Below are positions 1 to 64,000 of a stretch of 64,000 bases of DNA, piece after piece; positions within the stretch are counted from its first letter, which is position 1; every line of letters begins with the position of its first letter. The notes beneath the pieces were generated by a model that saw only the letters and a program-made list of their open reading frames with translations, did no database searches and was not told the origin of the DNA. The position numbers and the translations under genes are program-made. Source of the DNA: Eubacteriales bacterium (lineage in GTDB: Bacteria > Bacillota > Clostridia > Oscillospirales > CAG-272); the NCBI GenBank assembly GCA_045580325.1, contig JAZNNR010000017.1:5682-69681 (forward strand), in the 5' to 3' direction.

Positions 1-1033
1 AACCGCCGCCCTCAGTATTAGACCAGCTTCTCATAAGTATACCGTAGAGGTTGCCTGTGAGAGGTCCCTGATTGGTTTCAATAGCGAGAGCTCCGTTTGC
101 AAATACCTTAATATTACCATCTGCATTCCATTCAACTGCAAGTGTAACACCACTAAAAACGTCAATACCAAGGTCTGCAGGGTTAGCAGTTAGATAAGGA
201 TTCCACTCGCCCATTTTTATAAGCTGTATTTCACCGTAACCACTGATACATGCGAACCAGTAGCTTACGTCAGCGGAGTCCATACCAAACTCGTGGTCGC
301 CGTCAATATCAGAAAGAGCAAATACGATACCGTTTCTGGTGTTGCCGTCGTAGTTATGTGGAAGGTCTTTGAAGGTAGCTTCTACTCTGTTTACTGTGAG
401 AGCATTATCAAAGAGAAGGAAGTTTTCCATCGCACCTACTGCCGGCTTAATTGCGCCGTCTGTTTCGGTCCAGATGTTGCCGTTCACAAAATACGGATTG
501 AGAGGATTGCCGTTTGCGTCTACGCAGTTGCTGTAAGAATCGCCCTTAACGGTGATTGTACCAGGTACTGTGGCAACCTCAACATCTTCTTCAGCAAGGT
601 TGTTAACGCACAATACTACAATCTCAATCTTATAGTCGCCGGGTGCTGCATTTTCTGCAACAGTGAAAGCAAATGATCCCAAAGGACCGCCTTCTGTAAT
701 ATCTTCTTCCTCACCCAGCCACAGGGGGGAGATGCCGTTTGTAAAGTCAGTGAAGAGCTCAGAGAGGTTTTTCTGACCTACAGGATCTTTGGAAGTTGCC
801 TTTCTTGTGGCAAGCGTCAAAGCGGTCTTGTCATACTTGATGTTGACATTTATAGCGTATATGCCGATTTCATCAGGGTTCTCTAATGACAACTCCAAGT
901 ATACCGTTTCGCCTTTTTCTGCCTCTACGCTATCAAATTTAAGAGTCGGTTCGCCGGCAGCAAAAATCGGTACTGTCACGAAAATCGATGCTATCATTGA
1001 TAACACGAGCAGAAATGAAAGTAGTTTTTTCAT
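1..1033 (-). CDS. secreted cohesin-domain-like surface protein (N-terminal part; 3' end lies beyond the window start)
   Basis: Absent from the ORF track because it runs off the edge. Hand translation from ATG (rc of 1031-1033) gives MKKLLSFLLVLSMIASIFVTVPIFAAGEPTLKFDSVEAEKGETVY..., a signal peptide followed by a cohesin-like beta module. GGAGG (rc of 1041-1045) lies upstream. Confidence 0.6.
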   Translation of the reverse strand, partial: MKKLLSFLLVLSMIASIFVTVPIFAAGEPTLKFDSVEAEKGETVYLELSLENPDEIGIYAINVNIKYDKTALTLATRKATSKDPVGQKNLSELFTDFTNGISPLWLGEEEDITEGGPLGSFAFTVAENAAPGDYKIEIVVLCVNNLAEEDVEVATVPGTITVKGDSYSNCVDANGNPLNPYFVNGNIWTETDGAIKPAVGAMENFLLFDNALTVNRVEATFKDLPHNYDGNTRNGIVFALSDIDGDHEFGMDSADVSYWFACISGYGEIQLIKMGEWNPYLTANPADLGIDVFSGVTLAVEWNADGNIKVFANGALAIETNQGPLTGNLYGILMRSWSNTEGGG

Positions 1034-2284: not shown

Positions 2285-3097
2285 TTATTTTGCAAGCGAC
2301 GTGCAGTTATCAAATGCACCCTCGCCAACCGTCGTTACACTCGCGGGAATATCAGCCTTTGTAAGAGATACACACCACTTGAACGCGCCTGCGCCGATTG
2401 TTGTAAGCGAGGTGCCAAATTCAACCTCGGTAAGTGCTGTGCAGTATGCAAATGCGTTTTCGCCGATAGATGCAACCTTTGCGCCAAGCGTGAGGTCTGC
2501 AAGAGCGCTGCACTCTGTGCAAAGCCCTGCGGGAATTTCTGTAACGCTTACAGGGATCTCAAGTGCTGTAAGAGCGGAGCAGTATGCGAATGCTCTTTCG
2601 CCGAGTGTTGAGAGCGTAGAAGGAAGCTGAACACTTTCAAGAGAGTAGCTGTACCAGAATGCCTCTGCCGCAATCTCTGTAACTCCCTCGGGAACTACGA
2701 CCGAAGCAAGAAGTGTGTTTCTTTCAAAAGCGCCTCTTGCGATCTTCTTGACCTGTACTCCGTCTATTTTGTCGGGAATTACGAGGTCTATCGTCTTTAC
2801 CTCTTCTTCATCCTCAGAAGCTTCAGCAGCATCGTCCTCTGCCTCGTTTACAGTGAAATCATACTTAGTTATTTCGATATAGTTATCGTCTACGTAAAGA
2901 TTGTATGTATAGTTCTCATATACACAGCCGTACTTTATATTGTCCTTTGGTTTGTTTTCGTCGTCTTTTCCGTCATCCTCTTTTCCGAGAAGGTCCTCAA
3001 GCTTGATATCGTCCTCGTCGGTAGTCTTATCGGAGCCACACGATACAAGCGTCATAATAGCAAGCGCAAAAACAAGTATCAAAGCGATTTTTTTCAT
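2285..3097 (-). CDS. BspA-type leucine-rich-repeat lipoprotein
   Basis: Start moved to MKKIALILVFALAIMTLVSCG (lipobox) at 3097, with an AAAGGAAAA RBS. The C-terminal half is repeated ...IP.SVT.IG..AF..C..L... LRR_5-like units. Confidence 0.75.
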   Translation of the reverse strand: MKKIALILVFALAIMTLVSCGSDKTTDEDDIKLEDLLGKEDDGKDDENKPKDNIKYGCVYENYTYNLYVDDNYIEITKYDFTVNEAEDDAAEASEDEEEVKTIDLVIPDKIDGVQVKKIARGAFERNTLLASVVVPEGVTEIAAEAFWYSYSLESVQLPSTLSTLGERAFAYCSALTALEIPVSVTEIPAGLCTECSALADLTLGAKVASIGENAFAYCTALTEVEFGTSLTTIGAGAFKWCVSLTKADIPASVTTVGEGAFDNCTSLAK

Positions 3098-3331
3098 ATT
3101 TATTTTTCCTTTCTTTAGCAAACAAAGCTTTCGCATATGTATTTTGATTATAACATCTATTATTATTTTTGTCAACAAGATTTTAATTATTTTTGAGGTA
3201 TTTATTTTTATTTCAAAGTTATTTACCGTAAATTAACGCAAAAACGTACACAAATTTACAAAAAATTTATCTACAAGCCAATTTATATATGGTATAATGG
3301 ATTATTATGATACTTAAGGAGAGCTACGCTT

Positions 3332-22561: not shown

Positions 22562-22810
22562 AAATCGACGCTGAAGGCGTCGATTAACAGTTTTATGTTT
22601 TAGCCAAGTGGCTAAAACATAAAACTTCGTCCTTCGATTGAAGATAAATCGATGGCGGTGCCGTCGATTAACATTTTACGATTTCGCAAAGCGAAATCGT
22701 AAACTTCGACCTTCGAATGAAGTTAAATCGACGCTGAAGGCGTCGATTAGCAGTTTCGCTATCGGACAGCCGTCCGCTTTTTCGCTAACGCGAAAACCGC
22801 AAACTGCACC
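22562..22810. repeat. three tandem ~80-bp units, each built from three hairpins
   Basis: Units start at 22562, 22647 and 22726. Each is AAATCGA[..]TCGATTA, then a long AT-rich hairpin (e.g. TTTTATGTTTTAGCC-aagt-GGCTAAAACATAAAA), then CTTCGNCCTTCGANTGAAG. Confidence 0.75.
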
Positions 22811-60393: not shown

Positions 60394-61728
60394 ATGGCAG
60401 TCTTCCAAAGCCTCGCCGAAAAGCTCGGCAACGCTTTTAAGAAGTTCAGAAGCAAGGGCAAACTTACCGAAGCGGACGTTAAAGCGGGAATGCGCGAGGT
60501 CAAGCTTGCGCTTCTTGAAGCGGACGTTAACTACAAGGTTGTCAAAGACTTCGTAAAAACAGTAACCGAAAGAGCTGTCGGCGCTCAGGTTCTTGAAAGC
60601 CTGATGGCAGAACAGCAGATAATAAAAATAGTAAATGAAGAGCTCACCGCTATTATGGGCGGAACGGTCGAAAAGCTTACCATTGCTCCCAAGCCGCCTA
60701 CGGTAATTATGATGGTCGGTCTTCAGGGTGCGGGTAAAACCACACACGCGGCAAAGATAGCGGGATATTTCAAGAAGCAGGGCAAGCGTCCTCTGCTGGT
60801 CGCCTGCGACGTTTACCGTCCCGCAGCTATCACACAGCTTCAGACTGTGGGTGCACAGCTTGACATTCCCGTTTTCACGCTCGGTGATAAGGAAAGTCCT
60901 GTAAAGATCTCTAAAGAAGCTCTTAAATTCGCCGAAAAGAACGGAAACGATATGGTATTTATCGATACCGCAGGCCGTCTTCAGATCGACGAAAAGCTTA
61001 TGGGAGAGCTTGAGGACATCAGAAACGAAGTCGATCCCACCGAAGTACTCCTAGTTGTCGATGCGATGACAGGTCAGGTGGCAGTCGAGGTCGCAGATGC
61101 CTTCAACAAGCAGGTCGGAATTACGGGCGTAGTTCTAACCAAGGTCGACGGCGACACTCGTGGCGGTGCGGCACTTTCGGTAAAATATATCACAGGCAAA
61201 CCGATCAAATTCGTCGGTACAGGCGAAAAGCTCGACACCATCGAGCCCTTCTACCCCGACAGAATGGCTTCAAGAATACTCGGTATGGGCGATATGCTCA
61301 CCCTTATCGAAAAAGCCGAGCAGGCTTTCGACGAAAAGAAGGCGGCAGAGCTTGAAAAGAAGCTTATGGAATCGTCATTTACTCTTGACGATTATCTCGA
61401 TCAGTTCGCACAGATCAAAAAAATGGGTTCGCTCGATCAGCTTGCAGGTATGATCCCCGGTGTAAAGCCGAGTCAGCTTGCCGACGCAAAGGTCGATGAA
61501 AAGGCGCTCGCACAGACAGAGGCTATAATCAAGTCTATGACTATGAAGGAACGACGCCGCCCCGAAATTCTCAACTATTCGCGCAAGGTCAGAATCGCAA
61601 AAGGAAGCGGTACGTCGGTCGAGGCGGTCAACAGACTTCTCAAGCAGTTCGATCAGGTCAACAAGATGATGAAACAGATCTCATCAGGCAAATTCGGCAA
61701 AAAAGGCAGATTTAATCTCCCTTTTTAA
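60394..61728 (+). CDS. ffh: signal recognition particle protein Ffh
   Basis: GLQGAGKTT, DTAGR, TKVDGD and a Met-rich M domain. Confidence 0.97.
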   Translation: MAVFQSLAEKLGNAFKKFRSKGKLTEADVKAGMREVKLALLEADVNYKVVKDFVKTVTERAVGAQVLESLMAEQQIIKIVNEELTAIMGGTVEKLTIAPKPPTVIMMVGLQGAGKTTHAAKIAGYFKKQGKRPLLVACDVYRPAAITQLQTVGAQLDIPVFTLGDKESPVKISKEALKFAEKNGNDMVFIDTAGRLQIDEKLMGELEDIRNEVDPTEVLLVVDAMTGQVAVEVADAFNKQVGITGVVLTKVDGDTRGGAALSVKYITGKPIKFVGTGEKLDTIEPFYPDRMASRILGMGDMLTLIEKAEQAFDEKKAAELEKKLMESSFTLDDYLDQFAQIKKMGSLDQLAGMIPGVKPSQLADAKVDEKALAQTEAIIKSMTMKERRRPEILNYSRKVRIAKGSGTSVEAVNRLLKQFDQVNKMMKQISSGKFGKKGRFNLPF

Positions 61729-61777
61729 TATAAAAAATAAAAAAATATAAATTTCATTTATTTTGGAGGAACAAAAA

Positions 61778-62023
61778 ATGGCAGTTAAAATCAGACTCAG
61801 AAGAATGGGCGCAAAGAAGGCTCCCTTTTACCGCATCGTAGTAGCAGATTCCAGATTCCCTCGTGACGGAAGATTCATCGAAGAGATCGGATACTACAAT
61901 CCTATGACAAATCCCGCAGAAGTTAAGATCGACGCTGAAAAGGCAGCAACATGGATCAAGAACGGCGCACAGCCCACCGAAACAGTAAAGGCACTTCTCA
62001 AGAAGAACGAAATCATTAAATAA
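61778..62023 (+). CDS. rpsP: 30S ribosomal protein S16
   Basis: ATG at 61778 after [32 protein letters not shown]. Confidence 0.95.
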
Positions 62024-62042
62024 TCTCACTCGGAGGTAAATA

Positions 62043-62282
62043 ATGGCCAATTTAAAGCAGACTCTCATCGATATGGCCAAGTCTCTCGTTGACAGCCCGG
62101 ATGAGGTTACAGTCGAAGTTTCCGACGAAACAGAAGACTCTGTAACTTTCGAGCTTAGTGTTGCCCCCGACGATATGGGTAAGGTTATCGGCCGACACGG
62201 TCGCATCGCCAAGGCGATCCGTACTGTTATGAAATCGGCGGCTAATCTCGAAGGAAAGCGAGTTATCGTCAATATTAAGTAA
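62043..62282 (+). CDS. ylqC: KH-domain RNA-binding protein (YlqC/UPF0109)
   Basis: 79 aa. GKVIGRHGRIAKAIRTV. Confidence 0.85.
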   Translation: MANLKQTLIDMAKSLVDSPDEVTVEVSDETEDSVTFELSVAPDDMGKVIGRHGRIAKAIRTVMKSAANLEGKRVIVNIK

Positions 62283-62286
62283 AAAA

Positions 62287-62317
62287 AATGCGAAGTCAAA
62301 AGACTTCGCATTTTTTG
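62287..62317. terminator. bidirectional terminator between the KH-protein gene and veg
   Basis: AATGCGAAGTC-aaaa-GACTTCGCATT flanked by A8 and T6. Confidence 0.75.
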
Positions 62318-62358
62318 TTTGAATGAATTATAAGTGCGCATTACCAAGGAAAACGTCT

Positions 62359-62631
62359 TCACTTCTTTTTCAAAACCGCAGGTGTATAGTTCAGTTCCCT
62401 TATCACAACATGACCGATGAGTACCTCGCCGTACTGAAAGGTATGGTGGGCAGGGCGGCTGCTTTCTGTGCATTCCTCTACCTGAAATATGTTTTTATAT
62501 ACTCCGGTAATCTTTGCGGGTGCTTCCTCTACTACGACCCTCGGGTGCGTTTGACTTACGCTTACGTGAACGATCTGACCGTTTTCATAGAGCTGTCTGA
62601 TCTCGTTTTTGATATGATCAATGTTATACAT
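62359..62631 (-). CDS. veg: Veg-family protein (DUF1021)
   Basis: 90 aa. IKNEIRQL..G..V.V......PRVVVEEAPAKITGVYKNIFQVE....S....HTFQYGEVLIG.V.I parallels B. subtilis Veg as I recall it. Confidence 0.65.
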   Translation of the reverse strand: MYNIDHIKNEIRQLYENGQIVHVSVSQTHPRVVVEEAPAKITGVYKNIFQVEECTESSRPAHHTFQYGEVLIGHVVIRELNYTPAVLKKK

Positions 62632-62794
62632 AGCTTTTTCGTAGTATGATCTCCTCTCTCGATAAGGTCAATTGGGCAGAAATGACACAATCGTAATGCC
62701 GAGAGGAGTGAGCGAAACATATAGTTTAAACGTATCCGGCTGCCGTGGATACGAATAGGCTGCATCGCTCTCGTGGTAGAATTTCTACGTATTT

Positions 62795-62823
62795 ATTATA
62801 GCAGATTTTTGCTGAAATTTCAA
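62795..62823 (-). promoter_or_regulatory. sigma-A promoter for veg (about 155-nt leader)
   Basis: Minus strand: TTGAAA (rc of 62818-62823), 17 nt, TATAAT (rc of 62795-62800). Confidence 0.6.
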
Positions 62824-62853
62824 GCGAAATCTTTGGATTTTGTTGTGATTTTT

Positions 62854-63349
62854 GATTTTCTTTGCAAAAAAGACAGATACGCTGTGCGTACTTGGGATTC
62901 TGAACCCATAGCGGACGTCGCATGCCATTACCCCTTCTCTCACTTCCCGTCCGCTACAGCAAATCTTCGATTTGCGGGGTTCAGCATCGTTTTCTTTGCG
63001 TAAAAAAATACAGACACGCTCTCGCGTGTCTTTAATTTCACATACGTGGGATTCTGAACCCATAGCGGACGCCGCAAACGCTTACCCCTTCTTCCCCCCT
63101 TCCCGTCCGCTACAGCAAATCTTCAATTTGCGGGGTTCAGCATCGTTTTCTTTGCGTAAAAAAATACAGACACGCTCCGCGTGTCTTTAATTTCACATAT
63201 GTGGGATTCTGAACCCATAGCGGACGTCGCATAGTGTTACCCCTTCTCTCACTTCCCGTCCGCTACGGCAAATCTTCGATTTGCGGGGTTCAGCATCGTT
63301 TTCTTTGCGTAAAAAAAGAAAGACACGCATAGCGTGTCTGTCTTTTTTA
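62854..63349 (-). repeat. tandem array (3 full units of 154-155 bp plus one decayed terminator remnant) of a structured tRNA-T-arm-like element, each unit ending in a terminator; candidate ncRNA genes
   Basis: Units at 62892-63045, 63046-63200 and 63201-63349. Each has a three-way junction (CUGAACCC/GGGUUCAG, GCAAAUC-GAA-GAUUUGC, UAGCGGACG/CGUCCGCUA) followed by GACACGC-N3-GCGUGUC and U7 on the minus strand. Confidence 0.85.
63311..63349 (-). terminator. rho-independent terminator immediately after tRNA-Ser (prototype of the unit terminators)
   Basis: GACACGC-tat-GCGTGTC followed by TTTCTTTTTTT on the minus strand. Confidence 0.75.
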
Positions 63350-63435
63350 CGGAAGGAGTGGGATTCGAACCCACGTGGGCGTGAACCCAAACGGTTTTCA
63401 AGACCGCCTCGTTATGACCGCTTCGATATCCTTCC
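63350..63435 (-). tRNA. tRNA-Ser (anticodon UGA), class II with long variable arm; no encoded CCA
   Basis: The rc reads GGAAGGATATCGAAGCGGTCATAACGAGGCGGTCTTGAAAACCGTTTGGGTTCACGCCCACGTGGGTTCGAATCCCACTCCTTCCG. Cloverleaf folded by hand: 7-bp acceptor, CTTGAAA loop, GTGGG-TTCGAAT-CCCAC T-arm. Confidence 0.92.
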
Positions 63436-63576
63436 ATATTAGGTTTGTGCCAAAAAAGCTTTTCGTTACTTCTATCCTCACGGCTTCGTGCCCTTCCGAA
63501 AATTACGCCGAAATGTTCGACCGAGCATAGCTCGCTCTCCATTTAGGCTATTTTCGTGAACTGGCTTTTGACCCGT

Positions 63577-63603
63577 GTTATGACCGCTTCGATATCCTTC
63601 CAT
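63577..63603 (-). repeat. 27-nt exact duplicate of the tRNA-Ser 5' end (positions -2 to 25)
   Basis: GTTATGACCGCTTCGATATCCTTCCAT occurs at 63411-63437 (in the tRNA) and at 63577-63603, a 166-bp period. Confidence 0.9.
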
Positions 63604-63653
63604 TTTTGAAGATGCGACCGTCGCATCTTGTCTTGCTTTTTAAGCACTCAAGC

Positions 63654-63682
63654 ATTATAGCATATTTTTTGCGGGTTGTCAA
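63654..63682 (-). promoter_or_regulatory. consensus sigma-A promoter driving the tRNA-Ser locus
   Basis: Minus strand: TTGACA (rc of 63677-63682), 17 nt, TATAAT (rc of 63654-63659). About 45 nt upstream of the duplicated tRNA 5' fragment. Confidence 0.7.
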
Positions 63683-63732
63683 TAGTTATTTTTAAGTATA
63701 ACGCAGAAAGCTGATAATAAAGCCGAGCAGAA

Positions 63733-63767
63733 AACAGACGGCACGAGGATTTTCGTGCCGTCTGTTT
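63733..63767. terminator. terminator after the 63783.. gene
   Basis: ACAGACGGCACGA-ggatt-TTCGTGCCGTCTGT flanked by A- and T-runs. Confidence 0.7.
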
Positions 63768-63782
63768 TAAAATTATTTCATT

Positions 63783-64000
63783 TTATTTTTCTTTTCTCTT
63801 TTTCTTAAAGAATATAACTACCGCAACTGCAACCACGATCAAGAAAGCAGCTATAATTACAAGGTAGACGTAGCCGTCCTTCTTGCCGTCCTTTTCTGTG
63901 TCGAGCGTTTGCGTAACGTTTTCGTCGGTTGTTTCGGTCTTAGAGGAATGAGATTTCAGCTCGTCCAGATCAAACACGTACGTATCGGTAACCTTTTTGC
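63783..64000 (-). CDS. C-terminal part of a membrane-anchored surface protein (5' end beyond the window)
   Basis: The frame stays open to the window edge (..KKVTDTYVFDLDELKSHS...). C-terminal TM helix YVYLVIIAAFLIVVAVAVVIFF followed by KKKRKEK. Confidence 0.5.
   Translation of the reverse strand, partial: KKVTDTYVFDLDELKSHSSKTETTDENVTQTLDTEKDGKKDGYVYLVIIAAFLIVVAVAVVIFFKKKRKEK

Follow-up and report, generated by a model that had tools for sequence, protein, structure and literature searches.

The RtT repeats of Escherichia coli, which follow tRNA-Tyr, have been known since 1978. Inspected directly in NC_000913.3, the tyrT-tyrV trailer holds four RtT copies that score 133-137 bits against the Rfam model (RF00391; gathering threshold, 45 bits); each of its 178-bp repeats ends in ...GCUGAGU|AAUCCUUCCCCCACCACCA, that is, the 3′ end of tRNA-Tyr from position 58, and in the RtT consensus two hairpins are enclosed by a closing helix. 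The tyrT repeats are reported to give rise to the rtT RNA, for which no function has been settled (PMC3318445; bioRxiv 10.1101/2024.07.17.603846). Here we describe an array of three ~154-bp units, each folding into a three-way junction (helices P1, P2 and P3), in the 3′ trailer of tRNA-Ser(UGA) of a Eubacteriales bacterium (JAZNNR010000017.1), within a stretch of 64,000 nt that was analysed as a whole (hereafter the window; coordinates count from its first letter). Units, tRNA and terminators are read on the minus strand, that is, the tRNA-sense strand. With roughly even confidence, we propose that the array comprises three copies of an element from an uncatalogued tRNA-trailer family, a clostridial counterpart of the E. 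coli tyrT RtT repeats, and that the selected form of the element is a read-through RNA.

The two arrangements have much in common: both consist of tandem units in a tRNA trailer, on the tRNA strand, at a copy number of about 3-4, and in both each unit is a closing helix around two hairpins and ends in the 3′ end of its own tRNA from T-loop position 58 (here ...GGGUUCAG|AAUCCC...). However, in the RtT closing helix the partner of the 5′ strand is the tRNA-derived T-stem and acceptor strand, whereas in the clostridial P1 it is a T-stem-5′/T-loop look-alike, and the tRNA-derived part is reached by the outer 3 bp only. RtT occurs behind tRNA-Tyr only (as judged from the Rfam matches obtained here), whereas the clostridial family stands behind tRNA-Ser, -Ala, -Met, -Gln and -Arg. 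Clostridial units always come after an intrinsic terminator; in E. coli, the sequence from the tRNA to the repeats shows no evident terminator-like hairpin. RF00391 has no match in positions 61500-64000 of the window at E up to 10, and none in seven clostridial loci at the gathering threshold.

Displaced tRNA ends are also a mark of genomic islands. By the Islander definition, a regenerated tRNA and a displaced 3′ fragment, as a direct repeat, bound the insert (PMC4383910); in mycobacteriophage Ms6, the 26-bp attP core (AGGGGTTCGAATCCCC...) spans the T arm to the end of the tRNA, with exchange in the 7-bp T-loop (PMC1762012). As at tRNA-borne islands and the targets of T-loop tyrosine integrases, the units leave an intact tRNA with a downstream direct repeat from the T-loop, and the inserted DNA brings a terminator. 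Unlike islands, they bound a segment of only about 130-170 nt without integrase, cargo or conserved open reading frame (ORF), their repeat-proximal end is a conserved, covarying three-way junction with a T-loop mimic of 8 nt, and related units stand behind tRNAs with different acceptor stems.

Miniature inverted-repeat transposable elements (MITEs) and repetitive extragenic palindromes with their mosaic arrays (REP/BIME repeats) resemble the units in being short, non-coding, multicopy and extragenic near terminators, with inverted repeats or hairpins and local arrays. Units do have terminal inverted repeats (GATTCTGAACCC...GGGTTCAGAATC), which match at every position in L007, L008 and L009 and at all but one in the window. 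The flanks of eight loci, read directly, contain no short target-site duplication. Unlike these repeats, however, they occur behind tRNA genes only, in one orientation, and their helices covary between genomes rather than being merely sequence-conserved within a genome. Integron attC sites and the CTX-phage attP(+) site also have conserved ends, a variable self-pairing middle, paired ends that rebuild a target-like duplex, and tandem arrays. The attC consensus is RYYYAAC...GTTRRRY (R′′/R′ boxes), and an attC identity was rejected, as the unit ends TCTGAAC...GTTCAGA break it at position 4 of each box; moreover, unlike attC arrays, the units have no cassette genes between sites and no integron integrase in the ORFs scanned. 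No tRNA cloverleaf is present in the units (ARAGORN and RF00005 call true tRNAs only), and the Rfam Y RNA and YrlA models have no match in the window region or seven related loci.

A family of units linked to tRNA genes

A pattern scan for both P1 strands at the right distance, covering one genome per species, marked 12 places: 6 true homologues, all in metagenome-assembled genomes (MAGs) of Clostridia (Eubacteriales, Oscillospiraceae, Anaerotruncus and ‘Clostridia bacterium’), and 6 chance matches in GC-rich coding DNA. Covariance model R1, derived from the window units, finds 13 sense-strand units, missing those of L030 and L002; a second model (R2) brings the total to 27 units in 8 genomes, including loci reached via neighbouring proteins. 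As the search pattern demanded a conserved P1, the family is wider than sampled. MAFFT misaligned P2 and P3, and covariance-model alignments were used instead.

All 27 units lie immediately downstream of a tRNA gene and on its strand, in the fixed order tRNA, intrinsic terminator, 9-12-nt spacer and unit, and each unit consists of a left arm (CGAU(K)CUGAACCC), P2, P3 with a long free loop, a right arm (GGGUUCAG) and a copy of the local tRNA 3′ end. They stand behind tRNA-Ser(UGA) in the window, L001 and L037, tRNA-Ala(GGC) in L002, L005, L025, L030 and L007, tRNA-Ala(CGC) in L009, tRNA-Met(CAU) in L005, L025, L026 and L030, and tRNA-Gln(CUG) in L008, where a two-hairpin variant also follows tRNA-Arg(CCG). 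The element (~95-110 nt) is found in Oscillospiraceae/Ruminococcaceae-type Clostridia, and close Ffh relatives are labelled Clostridia or Ruminococcaceae MAGs. This spread across many tRNAs and the analogy with RtT are two points that an earlier, preliminary description of the array lacked; that description had also allowed for a repeat confined to one strain with random differences, where we find compensatory changes among these genomes.

A control of 41 kb of closely related DNA without tRNA genes contains no unit, and the covariance model finds none elsewhere in the 64-kb window. Two pattern scans of 2.9 million viral contigs gave no unit, a pattern scan of JGI metagenomes gave chance matches in GC-rich coding DNA only, and BLAST of two units against phage records returned nothing meaningful. 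The preliminary description could match the array to no familiar riboswitch or small-RNA family, and no known family matches here: Rfam holds none for the window region at E up to 10, or for seven related loci at gathering thresholds, and literature searches found no published description of this repeat family.

The junction between spacer and unit is the same in all genomes (CGAU|CUGAACCC), and 5′-truncated and nested partial units occur in L007, L008 and L009. Behind tRNA-Gln of L008, ~50-nt mini-units (TCGAACCCC-GCGCCGCGC-...-GGUUCAGAGCCCCUGUGCC; ~645-700 and ~785-840, plus strand) are interleaved with full units, each mini-unit ending in a T-arm look-alike with a piece of the tRNA-Gln acceptor strand. 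Of the full units there, the second is without the P1 5′ strand. Downstream of the L009 units (~2900-3330, minus strand) is an array of ~10 hairpin repeats of ~24 nt, framed by CATCAT...ATGATG (for example, ATGTTTGCCCTTCGGGCAAATGATG) and unrelated to the three-way-junction units.

Fold, covariation and selection

On the minus strand, the three window units fold individually into one common three-way junction (minimum free energy, -37 to -38.7 kcal/mol; z = -3.8, -2.2 and -4.0), with P1 formed by GAUgCUGAACCC/GGGUUCAGaAUC, a 7-bp P2 (GCAAAUC-GAA-GAUUUGC), and P3 (GUAGCGGACG/CGUCCGCUAU) capped by a purine-rich loop of 30-32 nt. The individual folds, together with Tandem Repeats Finder, bear out the three ~154-bp units with a minus-strand three-way junction that had been placed between tRNA-Ser and veg. 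The earlier account of P3 as a 9-bp helix holds for its nine Watson-Crick pairs and its loop of ~30 nt, but the helix is 10 bp counting the closing G-U; the only P2 change in the window (unit 2) stays G-U on the minus strand, as had been stated.

All family units fold independently into the same architecture, despite P2 and P3 sequences that differ between genomes. The junction strands are 1-4 nt long and variable (C; UG/CG/CAA/UA; U/GU/G). Of the T arm, the hairpin look-alike retains only GGG/CCC; its T-loop mimic is 8 nt or longer in every unit and never 7, and in the predicted folds the T-arm mimic is sequestered inside P1. A hammerhead-type or other three-way-junction ribozyme was considered and rejected, there being no conserved junction core and no Rfam ribozyme match.

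The P3 loop contains the 5-nt variable patch that had been pointed out previously (CACUA, GCGUU and UGGCA; 63231-63235, 63079-63083 and 62922-62926), five adjacent bases that differ between units otherwise ~94% identical. In the sister strain L001, the patch of unit 3 lies inside a unit otherwise resembling unit 1, which suggests block exchange between units rather than point mutation. Patch variation of a CRISPR-like kind, or like that of diversity-generating retroelements, was rejected, since the differences show no adenine specificity and genes associated with such systems were not seen.

In a model-fitted alignment of 13 units, pairing holds in 97% of cells, against 25-44% with the 3′ partners slid by 1-3 columns; changes occur on both sides in 7/7 P2 and 10/10 P3 pairs, and none of 500 shuffles reached the observed values. 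With all 27 units, 94.6% of cells are canonical, and G-U/U-G cells number 31 versus 12 A-C/C-A cells, an excess that seems mildly to favour the tRNA-sense strand. P1 is near-invariant, yet its outer pair changes together with the T-loop variant of the local tRNA: it reads GAC/GUC at Met loci, where the tRNA has GAGUCC, and GAU/AUC at most loci. In L030 CUGAACCC/GGGUUCAG is changed to UUGGACC/GGUUCAA.

Selection was also assessed without a fitted alignment, by comparing window unit 3 with the orthologous single unit of L037, in which the orthologous tRNA-Ser(UGA) is followed by the same terminator and one unit. Although the four-fold sites of ffh have diverged by 27% between the two, only 2 of 72 paired sites differ, compared with 29 of 79 unpaired sites (Fisher p = 1e-7), and the probability of two or fewer helix changes at the neutral rate is 5e-8. 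Statistically, this argues for strong purifying selection on the helices, terminator included, and for drift of loops and spacers at or above the neutral rate.

Tails copied from the local tRNA

After GGGUUCAG, units carry on with whatever follows UUCG in the T-loop of the neighbouring tRNA (that is, from position 58). The window copy (AAUCCCAC, 8 nt) runs from tRNA-Ser T-loop position 58 through the 3′ strand of the T-stem and, taken alone, is weak evidence because six of its bases are generic. Elsewhere the copies reach 9 nt (L009), 12 nt (L007, AAUCCCGUAUGC; L008-Gln, AAUCCCUGUGCC), 21 nt (L008-Arg, AAUCCGUUCGGGUAGGCCAAA) and, in two L030-Ala units, 22 nt (AAUCCCCUAUGCUCCACCAAA), the entire tail through CCA with the terminator next. 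The remaining loci share an identical prefix of 7-8 nt with the local tRNA, and no non-cognate tRNA has a prefix in common with a unit tail that is longer than 8 nt. The preliminary description had recognized in the unit end a copy of the tRNA-Ser T arm with a one-nucleotide insertion: GGGUUCAGAAUCCCA, present three times where 0.05 would be expected by chance, indeed differs from that arm by a single inserted A. The tRNA relationship that had been proposed on this basis extends to other genomes, in which the unit 3′ end copies the 3′ part of the neighbouring tRNA through CCA.

At several loci, both single- and multi-unit, the local terminator is duplicated on the far side of the unit (pattern A-U-A′), and most of the distal tail copies have lost the acceptor/CCA stretch. 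Gene conversion was rejected as the source of the local tail, since it cannot give matches of 12-22 nt running beyond the shared T-arm block. The T-loop of tRNA-Ala(GGC) reads GAGUCC in L025 (1753-1828) versus GAAUCC in L005 (2919-2994), where the adjoining SDR proteins are 98% identical; the L025 units retain AAUCC, so the tail copy records the tRNA at the time of copying, with no later synchronizing.

Copy number and recombination

Orthologous loci carry 0 to 4 copies overall, and the tRNA-Ser locus itself has three in the window, at least one in L001, one in L037 and none in L024. At the last of these, the tRNA-Ser T arm, with a normal 7-nt loop, is fused to AAUCCCAAGUACGC..., the right flank of window unit 1, and the fusion removes the units and the tRNA acceptor strand. 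The same locus (L024 1-405, from a strain with a 99% identical Veg) shows the 3′ half of tRNA-Ser from the anticodon loop, preceded by 360 nt of unrelated AT-rich non-coding DNA. This configuration suggests an island integrated at the tRNA-Ser anticodon loop together with T-arm-mediated loss of the array.

Products of recombination are also seen at other loci. At L005-Met, the terminator between units is a hybrid of a distal 5′ half and a proximal 3′ half, as expected for a product of unequal crossing-over; at L026-Met, identical terminators flank a single unit on both sides; and the L030 units are mosaics that share P3-to-P1 blocks, with near-identical units, loop included, behind tRNA-Ala and tRNA-Met. 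As copy number differs between close strains, the three window copies probably arose recently from one old unit, by neutral expansion. The L026 and L027 tRNA-Ala loci have no units, but their downstream context is different, so they do not fix the boundaries of the insertion.

Interpretation of the units

Each unit bears a T-arm look-alike and is usually placed between two copies of the tRNA 3′ flank; on the comparative evidence, these homologies drive unequal recombination, by which units are added (three here), reduced to one (L037) or lost altogether (L024). Purifying selection keeps the helices, in a pattern favouring the tRNA-sense strand. In our proposal, the selected molecule would be an RNA made as a tRNA trailer, by terminator read-through from the strong tRNA promoter; as no promoter was found in the units, read-through is the only visible route to a unit RNA. 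Such an RNA may fold into the three-way junction, hiding the T-arm mimic in P1, and may be cut back by the enzymes that process tRNA ends, which has been reported for RtT RNA. The family, its link to tRNA genes, the selected fold, the local tails and the recombination products are observed; transcription, processing and any cellular role of the units are inferred.

Several points weigh against this proposal. At every locus, the first unit lies beyond an intrinsic terminator that follows the tRNA. A promoter scan detected nothing promoter-like inside the window array (which agrees on this point with the preliminary description), and none was seen by eye in the spacers of other loci, so any unit RNA would depend on read-through of the tRNA terminator. 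No loop or junction nucleotide is conserved, which is unusual for a trans-acting RNA, and conservation of shape only fits a shape recognized by a nuclease or recombinase equally well. The pair counts were made on alignments fitted to the covariance model, and the G-U excess is drawn from related, non-independent copies. Homology-driven recombination explains gain and loss, but not clearly the first arrival at a new tRNA with both flanks local, and the near-identity of the Ala and Met units in L030 points to transfer between loci. Finally, the units lie outside the RtT model, and the parallel is one of architecture, not homology.

Whatever their origin, the units form a structured non-coding family absent from Rfam 15 that is well supported by covariation and a direct selection test, in hosts (gut Clostridia) that are abundant and poorly studied. 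The E. coli tyrT/RtT arrangement is therefore no one-off: two unrelated forms exist in two phyla, and this recurrence points to a common cause, which could be that T arms seed recombination generally or that there is a general use for tRNA-tailed trailer RNAs. The many independent loci make the question testable by comparison. In addition, the arrays are hotspots of rearrangement and assembly breaks beside tRNA genes, and tools that seek displaced tRNA fragments could mistake them for island boundaries.

We consider it unlikely, although less so than the other alternatives, that the units are a non-autonomous mobile element homing to tRNA genes, that is, a ~150-bp module (terminator, spacer and junction) that is essentially a naked attP. 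A T-loop-specific recombinase encoded elsewhere could move the module, or it could travel in single-stranded, folded form, its P1 duplex imitating a double-stranded T-arm site, as in integron attC or the CTX-phage attP; tandem arrays would arise from repeated insertion and recombination, and the helices would be conserved because mobility needs them. A regenerated tRNA with a 3′ fragment displaced from the T-loop, 21-22 nt long in L008-Arg and L030-Ala, is the classic mark of T-loop integration. Movement would also suit a module that supplies its own terminator for the tRNA, the perfect 12-nt terminal inverted repeats in L007, L008 and L009 (where the 5′-truncated and nested partial units are also found), the related units with local tails behind different tRNAs of one genome (within L005, within L030, and in the L007/L009 pair), and a conserved shape with unconserved loops.

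However, no integrase, transposase or reverse transcriptase is present among the 20 largest ORFs at 33.5-60.4 kb of the window, and none was seen in the gene tables of the related loci; no unit was found away from a tRNA or flanking a gene-carrying element, and the viral contigs and phage records gave no copies. Conservative T-loop integration would hand the tRNA the 3′ end of the element, so a simple integrase model is hard to reconcile with closely related units behind tRNAs whose acceptor stems differ. A T-loop mimic that is never 7 nt would, in addition, mismatch the 7-bp overlap that such integrases need, and persistence at orthologous loci with 27% four-fold divergence fits residents better than frequent movers.

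Somewhat less probable still is a gene-less, self-propagating module of ~100 nt of an undescribed kind, which would home by T-arm mimicry to any tRNA 3′ flank and whose insertion would duplicate the long target tail that runs from T-loop position 58 up to and including the terminator, via a folded single-strand DNA or RNA intermediate. Only the helices would then be conserved, because the folded intermediate is needed; in a variant of this idea, the hypervariable P3 loops would carry specificity.

That the units are passive scars, namely decaying displaced tRNA fragments and island ends, without function, left at the tRNA by islands or prophages that once integrated there, seems improbable. 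The tRNA-Ser(UGA) gene is visibly a recombination hotspot: its 3′ half abuts unrelated DNA in L024, a 141-nt insert upstream of the gene in the window lies between two copies of a 30-nt repeat derived from the tRNA 5′ end, and the acceptor/CCA stretch has been lost from most distal tail copies. Passive decay, however, sits poorly with the scarcity of changes in helices (2/72, versus 29/79 in unpaired sites) and the complete compensatory covariation, and independent deletions would not yield a CGAU|CUGAACCC junction that is uniform in all genomes. Of the att-like scars envisaged in the preliminary description, we thus retain the junction at T-loop position 58, as left by T-loop integrases, but not the pile-up, given the covariation and selection.

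A recent, neutral, strain-private duplication with only apparent structure is very improbable: the window units are 90-94% identical and copy number varies between close strains, but 27 units, found in 8 genomes and following five tRNA types (with the Arg variant in addition), and an orthologous single copy at 27% four-fold divergence, refute it for the unit itself, and it likely stays only as the account of copy number. Equally remote is a tRNA mimic, Y-RNA-like (as had been suggested) or otherwise, acting with Ro60/Rsr, RtcB or tRNA enzymes, and so is a gene for a small protein in the manner of tpr, the 29-amino-acid ORF with which the E. coli RtT repeat is annotated: units bear a T-arm-like motif and pristine ones have the full acceptor 3′ strand with CCA, but Rfam gives the units of the window region and seven related loci no Y RNA, YrlA or tRNA match, ARAGORN calls only the true tRNAs, the mimic is reduced to GGG/CCC with an 8-nt loop buried in P1, and no TROVE (Ro60) or RtcB domain occurs in the 20 largest ORFs at 33.5-60.4 kb, whereas a conserved, tpr-like ORF is excluded by the 2-nt insertion or deletion in the P3 loop of unit 2 and by loops that are unalignable between genomes.

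Features of the array and its neighbourhood

Tandem Repeats Finder reports a single array at 62889-63339 (period 153, 2.9 copies, 90% matches, score 744), and the copy-to-copy spacing is 156 and 153 nt. Four terminator-like hairpins on the minus strand were predicted across it, and the promoter upstream of tRNA-Ser is the sole promoter-like site able to feed it (Table 1).

Table 1 Features of the tRNA-Ser(UGA) trailer array and its flanks in the window
Feature	Position	Strand	Evidence
Consensus sigma-70 promoter (TTGACA-17-TATAAT with TG), upstream of tRNA-Ser	63654..63682	-	Promoter scan, 12/12 matches
tRNA-Ser(UGA) gene, with the array in its 3′ trailer	63349..63436	-	ARAGORN; Rfam tRNA match, 55.5 bits
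T0, tRNA-Ser intrinsic terminator (AGACACGC-UAU-GCGUGUCU + U-run), leader ACGCAAAGAAAA next	63311..63339 (hairpin 63321-63339)	-	Terminator scan, sequence
Unit 3, P1/P2/P3 junction ending GGGUUCAG, then AAUCCCAC	63201..63297	-	Fold; covariance model matches, 129 and 92.5 bits
Terminator after unit 3	63158..63186 (hairpin 63168-63186)	-	Terminator scan
Unit 2, P3 loop more divergent and 2 nt longer, G-U change in P2	63046..63144	-	Fold, covariance models
Terminator after unit 2	63002..63031 (hairpin 63012-63031)	-	Terminator scan
Unit 1, last of the array, adjoining veg	62892..62988	-	Fold, covariance models
Terminator of unit 1 with leader-like GCAAAGAAAA	62854..62891 (hairpin 62877-62891)	-	Terminator scan; alignment with L001
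veg promoter (TTGAAA-17-TATAAT), outside the element, distal boundary of the array	62795..62823	-	Promoter scan
veg gene	62359-62631	-	

The T0 stem is identical at the orthologous locus L037, and this terminator with ACGCAAAGAAAA follows tRNA-Ser itself, as had been described; a terminator is present after every unit, but the motif CACAUAUGUG, which had been given as the end of each, is exact behind one only. What had been taken for a decayed remnant at 62854-62891 turns out to be the own terminator of unit 1, with a 17-nt deletion relative to the sister strain L001. Homology with the array-free relatives L019 and L038 picks up at 62854 (BLAST boundaries), and the veg promoter is kept in relatives without the array.

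The 20 largest ORFs at 33.5-60.4 kb are housekeeping genes (secA, glyA, mnmE, ylxM-ffh and others). The array had been said to break rpsP-KH-rimM-trmD synteny, but rimM-trmD follows KH in none of six relatives with 93-99% identical Ffh, and almost every one of them has something different downstream of KH. Relatives found via veg or ffh have rearranged neighbourhoods. The 56.7-64 kb neighbourhood is heavily rearranged even among strains with 98-99% identical Ffh (L037 and L038): the GNAT-to-KH block is inverted relative to L037, with one breakpoint directly after the tRNA-tail copy of the unit, and in L038 a heparinase II/III-like gene lies between KH and veg, and PAP2, not tRNA-Ser, adjoins veg. 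A riboswitch or leader for veg was rejected as an identity for the units, since the downstream genes differ at each locus.

Between the consensus promoter and tRNA-Ser, a 30-nt direct repeat (63411-63440 and 63577-63606, minus strand), made up of 5 nt of leader plus tRNA-Ser nt 1-25, flanks the 141-nt insert. This repeat looks like either a 5′-side counterpart of the tail duplications or an integration leftover. The 214-nt tRNA-Ser leader folds unusually well (-67 kcal/mol, z = -4.85) and has no Rfam match. Elsewhere in the window, positions 22562-22756 hold a 79-nt tandem repeat (2.4 copies, 75% matches, Tandem Repeats Finder score 225) that contains a hairpin-like AAATCGACGC...GCGTCGATT.

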